NCBI GenBank assembly: GCA_963849885.1
Contig: CAWKIV010000006.1
Location: forward strand, 5,051-69,050
DNA length: 64,000 nt
Source of the DNA: an uncultured Actinomycetota bacterium
Lineage (GTDB): Bacteria; Actinomycetota; Actinomycetes; Mycobacteriales; CADCTP01
Direction of reading: 5' to 3'
Shown: positions 61,401-64,000 of the stretch, piece after piece
Position numbering within the stretch: position 1 is the first letter of the stretch
Layout: every line of letters starts with the position of its first letter
Made by a program: the position numbers

Positions 61401-64000
61401 TCGACCGGCTTGCTGGCGAAGGAGCTCAGGCCCATCGCGGTGCCGCGGGCCGCCGCGGCCCGGGCGACCGCGACCTCGCCGTCCGGGTGCACCGCCTGCA
61501 CCCCGGTCGGGGAGATGAGCACCGGCATGCTCACGTCCTGGCCCAGCACCCGGGTGGCCAGCTCGCGCGGGGCCCAGCCGCCCAGCACGTGCGGGGCGAA
61601 GCCGAGCTCGGCGAACGCGGCCTGGTTGTCCGACAGCGTCCGGCCCCGCTCGGCGCCGGCGAGCAGCGCCAGGTAGACCGACCTCGGCAGCCGCCGGCGG
61701 GCCCGCCGCTGCGCCTCGGCGACCGACTCGAACCACTCGTCAGCCACGGGCCGACCCCTCCAGCGGGCTCTCGGCGCACGGCTTCGCCGGCGCCCGGGTC
61801 GGGCCGAGGGTCAGCGGCACCGGTCCGCCCCGCACCCCGCCGGCGTGCGAGTGGTCCCCGCTCGGCCGCGGCCCGGCACCGTCCACGAGGGACAGTGCGG
61901 TGGCGCCGTGGCCCCGCACGCACTCCGGGTCCGGGCCGTCCAGCGGCAGCCCGGTGAAGAACTTCGCGGCCATGCAGCCGCCCCGGCAGGCGTCGTACGC
62001 GCCGCAGGACCGGCACGCGCCGCCGCTCTGCGGCTCGCGCAGCTCCCGGAACAGCTCGGACTCCCGCCAGACCGCGGCGAACCCGCCCGGCGAGCGCACG
62101 CTGCCGGCCCGGAACGCGTCGTGGATGGCGAACGGGCACGCGTAGACGTCGCCGACCGGGTCGATCAGGCAGACCACCCGGCCGGCGCCGCACAGGTTGA
62201 GCCCCGGCAGCGGCTGCCCGTACCCGGCCAGGTGGAAGAACGAGTCGCCGGTCAGCACGCCCTCGCCGTGCGCGACCAGCCAGTCGTACAGCTCGCGCTG
62301 CTGCGCCGCGGTCGGGTGCAGCGCCGGCCAGACGTCGGCCCCGCGACCGGACGGGCGCAGCCGGGTCAGCCGCAGCTGGGCGCCGTACGAGTCCGCGAGC
62401 GCCTTGAAGGCGTCCAGCTGCGGCACGTTGTGCCGGGTGCAGACGACGGAGAGCTTGAAGCCGCGGACGCCGGCGGCGGCGAGGTGGTCCATCGCCCGCA
62501 CCGCCGTCGCGTACGAGCCGGCGCCGCGCACCGCGTCGTTGACCTCCGCGGTCGCGCCGTCCAGGGACACCTGCACGTCGACGTAGTCGCTGGCGGCGAT
62601 CCGGCGGGCCGCGGCGGGGCCGAGCCGGATGCCGTTGGTGGAGAACTTCACGCCGACCTGGTGGTCGGTCGCGTAGTCGACCAGCTCCCAGAAGTCCGGC
62701 CGCACGGTGGGCTCGCCGCCGCCGATGTTCACGTAGAACACCTGCATCCGCTGCAGCTCGTCGACCACCGCCTTCGCCTCCGCGGTGGTCAGCTCACCCG
62801 GGTCGCGCCGGCCGGAGGACGACAGGCAGTGCGCGCACGCCAGGTTGCACGCGTAGGTCAGCTCCCAGGTCAGGCAGATCGGCGCGTCCAGGCCGGCGGC
62901 GAAGTGCTCGACCAGCGGCCGGGCCGCGGGCGCCCGGGCGTCCGGCGTGGCGGTCACGGCACCTCCTCGATCATCCGGGTCTCGGCCAGCACCGCCAGCG
63001 CCCGCTCGTACGGCCCGAGCTGGTCGGCGGCCAGCCCGGCCGCGGCGCAGGCGGCGCGGGCGGAGGAGGCGTCAGCCAGCCCCAGCACCACCGCGAGCAG
63101 CCGCGGGTCCTTGAGGAAGGACAGCCGCCGGGTGCCGAAGTGGTAGAGCAGCGCGCCGAACGGCTCCGGCCGCACCGCGACCTGCGGCGCCAGCGCCCAC
63201 CGCCGGTCGATGTCCACTGTGCTCACTCTGCTCACGGCGTCCGCCGAGGACAGTCCTCAGTAGACCCCGCACATGCCGTCGATGGAGACGTCCTCGACGA
63301 GCAGCTCCTGCTCCACCAGCGGCTCGTCGATGGCGGGGGCGACGCACGGCCCCGGTGGCGACCGCGGCCCCGGCGGCGGTCTCCGGCCGGTCGGCGCTGC
63401 GGGCGGCGGAGCTCGGCTGGTCGGTCATGGCATGCTCCCCTGTGCCGGGAAAGGTGCTACCTGCCGCCGGCCAGAGTAATGGCACTCGGTGCCGAAAGGA
63501 AGAGGTGATGGGCACCGGACGGCGGCCGCGCACCACCCGCGCCGAGCTCGAACGGGTCGCCTTCGCGCTGTTCGAGGCCAAGGGCTTCGACGAGACCACG
63601 GTGGACGACATCGCCGCGGCGGCGGGCATCGGCCGGCGCACCTTCTTCCGCTACCACCGGTCGAAGAACGACGTGGTGTGGGGCGACTTCGACGGCGAGC
63701 TGGCCCGGCTGCGCGGGTGGCTCGCCGCCACCCCCGCCGACCGGCCGCTGATGGACGCGGTCCGCGCCGCCGTGCTCAGCTTCAACCGGCTCGACCCGGC
63801 CCAGGTCCCGTGGCACCGGCAGCGCATGCGGCTGATCCTCGAGACGCCCGCCCTGCAGGCGCACTCCACCCTCATGTACGCCCGGTGGCGGGCGGTCGTG
63901 GCCGACTTCGCCGGGGCCCGGACCGGCCGGCCGGCCGGCGACCTGCTCCCCCAGCTGATCGCGCACACCGTCCTCGGCGCGGCCATCGCGGCGTACGACC

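Follow-up and report, generated by a model that had tools for sequence, protein, structure and literature searches.

Reading frames of mftA in the assembled window

Is the mycofactocin precursor gene mftA of an uncultured Actinomycetota bacterium broken in the organism, or only in its assembled sequence? The gene lies near the end of the window, a stretch of 64,000 nt of contig CAWKIV010000006.1, in a cluster with mftB, mftC, mftD, mftE, and mftR, all of which are equivalog-level matches. An earlier note on this DNA had offered three readings, namely an assembly indel, an inactivated precursor in an otherwise intact pathway, and a short leaderless-type precursor.

On the minus strand, the ATG at 63428-63426 and the mftA core lie in different reading frames, as the earlier note had described. 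A Shine-Dalgarno (SD)-like GGGGAG (63435..63440, minus strand) is located 6 nt 5' of this ATG, which opens a frame beginning with MTDQPSSAARSADRPETAAGAAVATGAVRRPRHRR and reaching its first stop at 63072. The core, ...PAIDEPLVEQELLVEDVSIDGMCGVY, closes at TGA 63259-63257, and its tail AIDEPLVEQELLVEDVSIDGMCGVY is out of frame with ATG 63428. The core frame is open from TGA 63427-63425 and contains no ATG, GTG, or TTG before GTG 63316 (63314..63316, minus strand). This sole in-frame start codon gives a 19-aa product, which also agrees with the previous reading of the sequence. Direct reading of the upstream sequence, ATCGACGAGCCGCTG, revealed no SD-like or GGAGG-like motif before this GTG.

The gene as assembled consists of a 5' segment (63345..63428, minus strand) with the ATG and 28 codons of variable leader (MTDQPSSAARSADRPETAAGAAVATGAV), and a 3' segment (63257..63342, minus strand) reading ...APAIDEPLVEQELLVEDVSIDGMCGVY followed by TGA. 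The latter contains the block conserved among MftAs, matched by TIGR03969, together with the Val-Tyr core. Against this model (cut-off 25), a score of 48.1 bits is obtained with the raw translation of the core frame as well as with the repaired peptide, and in both cases the match spans model positions 2-23 of 23. The C-terminal IDGMCGVY with its Val-Tyr core and a stop directly after it is present in the window, while an uninterrupted ORF from a start preceded by a ribosome binding site to the core is not. In addition, a mini-ORF of two codons, ATG-CCA-TGA (63425-63433, minus strand), overlaps the mftA ATG (ATGCCATGAC), and all 15 related contigs keep it unchanged.

Position of the extra base

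When the repaired peptide was used as query, a protein search retrieved P0001, a 56-aa "mycofactocin precursor" with 93% identity, whose 90% cluster holds three further 56-aa members (P0121-P0123). Same-species DNA covering mftA was found on four contigs, specifically L081 (JGI, 1 kb), L093 (80 kb), L095 (17 kb), and L096 (528 bp, SPAdes-style). They share 97.7-99.4% nucleotide identity with the window over 0.5-8 kb and are therefore assigned to its species-level population, sampled elsewhere. In each of the four, mftA occupies a single frame of 56 aa, and L096 differs from the window by one base only across the mftA coding sequence.

Alignments with these relatives, including a three-way alignment of the window, L093, and L095 over 57011-64000, place a single extra base at 63343..63344 (minus strand), where the window reads GTG-CG-TC. 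Three relatives have GTG-CTC-GCC (Leu) at this site and one has GTG-GTC-GCC (Val), compared to GTG-CGTC-GCC in the window, which holds the C and G alleles of a population SNP in tandem. Removing G 63343 yields exactly P0122, MTDQPSSAARSADRPETAAGAAVATGAVLAPAIDEPLVEQELLVEDVSIDGMCGVY, and removing C 63344 yields the Val allele at the SNP codon. P0121, P0122, P0123, and P0001 differ mutually at one to five leader positions.

The earlier note had located the indel in the C5 run at 63339-63335, where deletion of one C produced its 56-aa peptide. This location is not borne out, as the run is C5 in every aligned relative and the extra base lies 5-9 nt upstream; a repair inside the run was consequently rejected. 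The start at ATG 63428 and the length of 56 aa stand and correspond to P0122, whereas three residues change: the corrected peptide reads ...GAV(L/V)APAIDE... and not ...GAVRRPAIDE..., i.e., VLAP or VVAP in place of VRRP. Comparison with mftA of close relatives, which had been proposed as a check, revealed single-frame orthologues that do not share the two-frame arrangement, and it favours the assembly indel among the three initial readings. Two DNA-pattern scans of metagenome contigs returned no match or just a duplicate of L083, and a scan of genome contigs for MftB gave no same-species genome among the matches listed, the best being 71% identical.

True start and leader length

A sister lineage represented by P0002 (46 aa, ten contigs) has the SD sequence, the ATG, and the N-terminus MTDQPSSA in common with the window and encodes its MftA in a single frame. 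In-frame gaps of 3 and 27 nt account for the differences between the 46-aa and 56-aa forms, and all length differences are multiples of 3. ATG 63428, SD, and MTDQPSSA are kept in frame with the core in 15 related contigs, and GGGAG occurs in all related contigs, three of them having one G fewer. Since start region and N-terminus are shared and the gaps are exclusively in-frame, ATG 63428 is taken as the true start. The conserved in-frame ATG, SD, and MTDQPSSA show the long form of MftA to be the one predicted to be translated.

In the fetched loci, mycobacterial MftAs comprise 29-31 aa, in line with the 31 aa of MftA from M. smegmatis (PMC7491314). Among 79 genome loci, the other actinobacterial MftAs mostly measure 35-62 aa or longer when counted from the first ATG, for example 46 aa in Frankiales, 48 aa in Thermomonospora, 47 aa in Dactylosporangium, and 56 aa in both Solirubrobacteraceae and Acidimicrobiia. 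The best 120 database matches, a list in which long alignments are favoured and very short ORFs under-represented, have a median length of 49 aa (range 31-80), with 19 of them reaching at least 56 aa. A 56-aa precursor is therefore ordinary. The leader that had appeared unusually long is so in comparison with mycobacteria, but not in comparison with other actinobacteria.

MftA is strongly conserved in its 16 C-terminal residues and moderately so from there back to position -23, beyond which conservation is lost. The IDGMCGVY positions are invariant across 78 distinct MftA tails, and the frameshift site, at -28/-29, falls in the unconserved leader. A long and variable N-terminal leader rich in Ala, Pro, Thr, and acidic residues is normal in non-mycobacterial MftAs and is probably dispensable. 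This corrects a mycobacteria-centred assumption, as actinobacteria other than mycobacteria normally have MftA leaders of 40-60 aa.

The mft operon and its operator

Downstream of mftA, the minus strand encodes the RRE-type chaperone MftB (62954..63235; TIGR03967, 109 bits), the radical SAM/SPASM maturase MftC (61740..62957; TIGR03962, 657.6 bits, full length), the pre-mycofactocin synthase MftD (60498..61747; TIGR03966, 687.7 bits), and the peptidase MftE (59803..60501; TIGR03964, 287.6 bits), followed by a mycofactocin-coupled SDR oxidoreductase (58911..59723; TIGR04504, 341.6 bits). The TetR-family regulator gene mftR (63508..64000, plus strand; TIGR03968, 249.8 bits) is divergent from mftA and is cut by the window end. 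In the relatives L082, L093, and L095, mftF is situated beyond mftR, and hence it lies outside the window. The genes mftB, mftC, mftE, and mftR, as well as mftD up to its tail, give full-length equivalog HMM matches free of stops and hence no indication of pseudogene decay.

By exact look-up, the 87-aa version of MftB (start 63217) has the same sequence as the MftB encoded on L093 and L094; look-ups for exact matches to the 93-aa MftB, MftE, and MftC gave none. In L094, a short low-coverage contig, about 89 nt are missing from the 5' region of mftC (window 62821-62909), so that the contig is a chimera or else represents a deletion variant.

The intergenic region between mftR and mftA contains an operator-like palindrome with the core GGCA-N5-TGCC (63481..63493). 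In M. smegmatis, the MftR operator motif was mapped as T-N2-GGCA-N5-TGCC-N2-A (PMC8728441). The core at 63481-63493 is invariant in 11 related contigs. Its frequency in the window (4 occurrences versus 1.9 expected) is not significant, and the argument is based on position and conservation. The invariant candidate palindrome suggests that control by MftR may be conserved far outside mycobacteria.

Further frame breaks and noise in sibling contigs

A second break in the operon affects the mftD tail. The mftD frame misses the expected TGA at 60500-60498, which overlaps the mftE GTG (GTGA, 60501-60498), by one base, and the ORF continues across mftE to 59708, giving 679 aa. The 3' tail of mftD (60498-60560, minus strand) is a 9-nt tandem repeat of GCCGACCGG encoding (ADR)n. 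At the repeat-unit junction 60518|60517 a G is absent, so that the window reads CGG|CC (60517..60519, minus strand) compared to CGG|GCC at every other unit junction, which probably represents a 1-nt deletion. In L093 and L095, mftD ends at the GTGA overlap with ...ADPPGR* and ...AGPPDR*, respectively, and the window has the corresponding AGPPGR* in the other frame only. The number of repeat copies varies by assembly, with 4-5 units in the window and about 10 in both L093 and L095.

Elsewhere in the window, a beta-lactamase-family gene (37826-38876, plus strand) is split at 38696, with Pfam positions 5-257 and 261-322 in different frames. The gene is intact in the same-species contigs L097 and L098 (345 and 343 aa), and the break is a window-private extra base adjoining a hypervariable stretch. 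In a PA-domain/Peptidase_M28 gene (550-2192, plus strand), M28 positions 1-70 and 69-190 are found in two frames with a break at ~1589-1593, which is probably another 1-nt indel. As the GC3 frame plot used to find further frameshifts is noisy, candidates were kept only if a split Pfam domain confirmed them. Candidates at 45.9-47.9 kb were rejected as separate small genes or a transposase fragment. The coding frame changes repeatedly at 45.9-47.2 kb, where a DDE transposase fragment (46090-46713, plus strand; Pfam positions 21-106 only) is probably a decayed insertion sequence. Apparent window-private deletions at 42.2-43.3 kb were left uncounted, as two siblings disagree there and the folE-like ORF of the window looks normal. 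An aldo-keto reductase fragment (6897-7718, minus strand), in which the Pfam match starts only at position 133, is split at ~7312; because it is also truncated N-terminally, the split was dropped as evidence of error. Just upstream of this fragment, a zinc-type alcohol dehydrogenase is putatively represented by its C-terminal end (7485-7718). These pieces may be true gene remnants or the result of local misassembly, and the genome of the window may hold some real pseudogenes, of which the truncated aldo-keto reductase would be an example. A private 1-nt insertion relative to L093 and L095, GCGC[G]CCC at 58025, is located between a MoxR-like AAA gene (end ~57989) and a VWA gene (start 58098).

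The sibling contigs are considerably noisier. Per 7 kb, L093 and L095 have 14-17 private 1-nt indels each, most of them insertions outside homopolymers and one, at 61324 (GTG, GTC, GTCG), a SNP doubling comparable to that in mftA; L097 and L098 contain private 1-nt indels of the same kind. These four contigs are noisy, probably long-read assemblies of the window's population. With 9-19 private substitutions versus 66-118 in the siblings, and few private indels, the window has the appearance of a consensus that was polished but retained some errors. The contig names (contig_N in siblings) and the error profile point to a long-read origin of the window assembly.

A split between an SD-preceded ATG and the core frame was also detected in two of the 79 genome loci, L003 (2215-2480) and L077 (2150-2415), which are the GTDB representative MAGs MFD05841.bin.2.132 and MFD03044.bin.2.59, respectively. 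Their splits are found at other positions and in unrelated leader sequences, and they are probably assembly indels of the same type, that is, a recurrent artefact class.

Origin of the two-frame arrangement

Judged from sequence comparison, the two-frame mftA is very probably due to an assembly or consensus indel that left one spurious base at 63344/63343. The real gene would then run from ATG 63428 to TGA 63257 in a single frame and encode the 56-aa peptide MTDQPSSAARSADRPETAAGAAVATGAV(L/V)APAIDEPLVEQELLVEDVSIDGMCGVY; it would be an ordinary mftA that leads an mftABCDE operon, with mftR oriented divergently. Most likely, the C/G polymorphism between strains (CTC Leu versus GTC Val) was wrongly written as CG in the consensus of a long-read metagenome. 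In favour of this explanation are the intact gene in four contigs of the same species, the two SNP alleles side by side, and the sister lineage, in which the same start and N-terminus are followed by length changes in multiples of three. Further support comes from the private breaks in mftD and the beta-lactamase and peptidase genes, from the indel load of the siblings including the doubling at 61324, from mft HMM matches without decay, and from the analogous splits in two unrelated MAG loci. From these observations, we infer that the extra base is an error and not a real mutation. Against this stands its position outside a homopolymer, the classic context of indel errors. Moreover, were the source a clonal isolate, the account of the doubled SNP by a strain mixture would fail.

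Conversely, the base could be a real insertion, a recent strain-specific +1 frameshift that inactivates mftA and creates a mycofactocin-null variant with its maturation genes still intact. The base is present in the given sequence outside a homopolymer, and at least one probable true gene remnant, the truncated aldo-keto reductase, exists in the window. Nevertheless, this origin is unlikely. All four other same-species contigs covering mftA have it intact, the inserted base equals the alternative SNP allele (an estimated chance of ~2% for a random insertion in 171 nt), and mftB, mftC, and mftE show no decay. In addition, the second operon break and the private breaks elsewhere are better explained by assembly noise than by new mutations that happened to coincide. 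The earlier idea of an inactivated precursor in an otherwise intact pathway is improbable as well, and its second half does not hold for the assembly as given, where mftD also lacks its stop. Somewhat less probable again is a natural mftA-null strain with a real extra base in which residual cofactor would be made via a 19-aa, GTG-initiated minimal precursor. A real base would provide a natural precursor knock-out strain, which is of modest interest, and a true 19-aa precursor would define the smallest leader accepted by MftB and MftC.

That this 19-aa peptide from GTG 63316 (M-EQELLVEDVSIDGMCGVY) is the functional precursor, with the upstream ATG frame being irrelevant, is very unlikely, even though the Val-Tyr core and all of the 16 positions with the highest conservation fall within it. 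Its start is not preceded by an SD-like sequence, it leaves positions -20 to -23 of the 23-position model uncovered, and it is shorter than the shortest MftA among the 79 genome loci (25 aa). Furthermore, 15 relatives have the upstream ATG, SD, and MTDQPSSA in the reading frame of the core. The short leaderless-type precursor suggested previously thus finds no support, being below the minimum length and missing part of the 23-residue block. Programmed recoding, in which a +1 ribosomal frameshift or transcriptional slippage would join the two frames, is the least credible explanation and can be considered extremely unlikely. The two-frame arrangement itself and the split mftA in two other MAG loci would be in line with it. 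However, even within the species the arrangement is not shared, as orthologues are single-frame, the splits in L003 and L077 occur elsewhere in unrelated leaders, and the junction GCC-GTG-C-GTC-GCC is devoid of a slippery, repeat, or homopolymeric motif.

With a consensus error as the preferred explanation, what lies beneath the anomaly is an ordinary, already known MftA, the exact product of which can be found in public collections. The practical consequence is a quality flag for residual 1-nt indels in the window genes for mftA, the mftD tail, the beta-lactamase, and the peptidase M28. Automatic annotation would miss mftA, call mftD as 679 aa, and report a mycofactocin pathway without its precursor.

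Comparison with known systems

In the mycobacterial system, MftB binds MftA, and MftC oxidatively decarboxylates and cyclises its C-terminal Val-Tyr. AHDP is released by MftE, premycofactocin is formed by MftD, and MftF glycosylates it by adding a glucan, while MftR represses the operon at a palindrome (PMC7491314). Going by its gene content and motifs, the window locus appears to show no departure from this scheme.

The gene resembles MftA (TIGR03969, Pfam PF23709; 31 aa in M. smegmatis) in its C-terminal block LVEDVSIDGMCGVY with the Val-Tyr core, and in its placement directly upstream of mftB-mftC-mftD-mftE, divergent from mftR, with GGCA-N5-TGCC upstream. It differs from mycobacterial MftA in its length of 56 aa compared to 29-31 aa and in an ORF broken by one extra base. 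In contrast to genes with programmed ribosomal frameshifts, the site is not conserved in orthologues and offers no shift-prone motif. The likeness to frameshift artefacts of long-read metagenomes, as in L093, L095, L097, and L098, consists of private 1-nt indels that break conserved genes; the window is far cleaner than these siblings, and its sequencing platform is deduced. Close counterparts are the 56-aa MftAs P0121-P0123 and P0001 of the same species, which are encoded in a single frame and of which P0122 equals the window peptide once base 63343 is removed.
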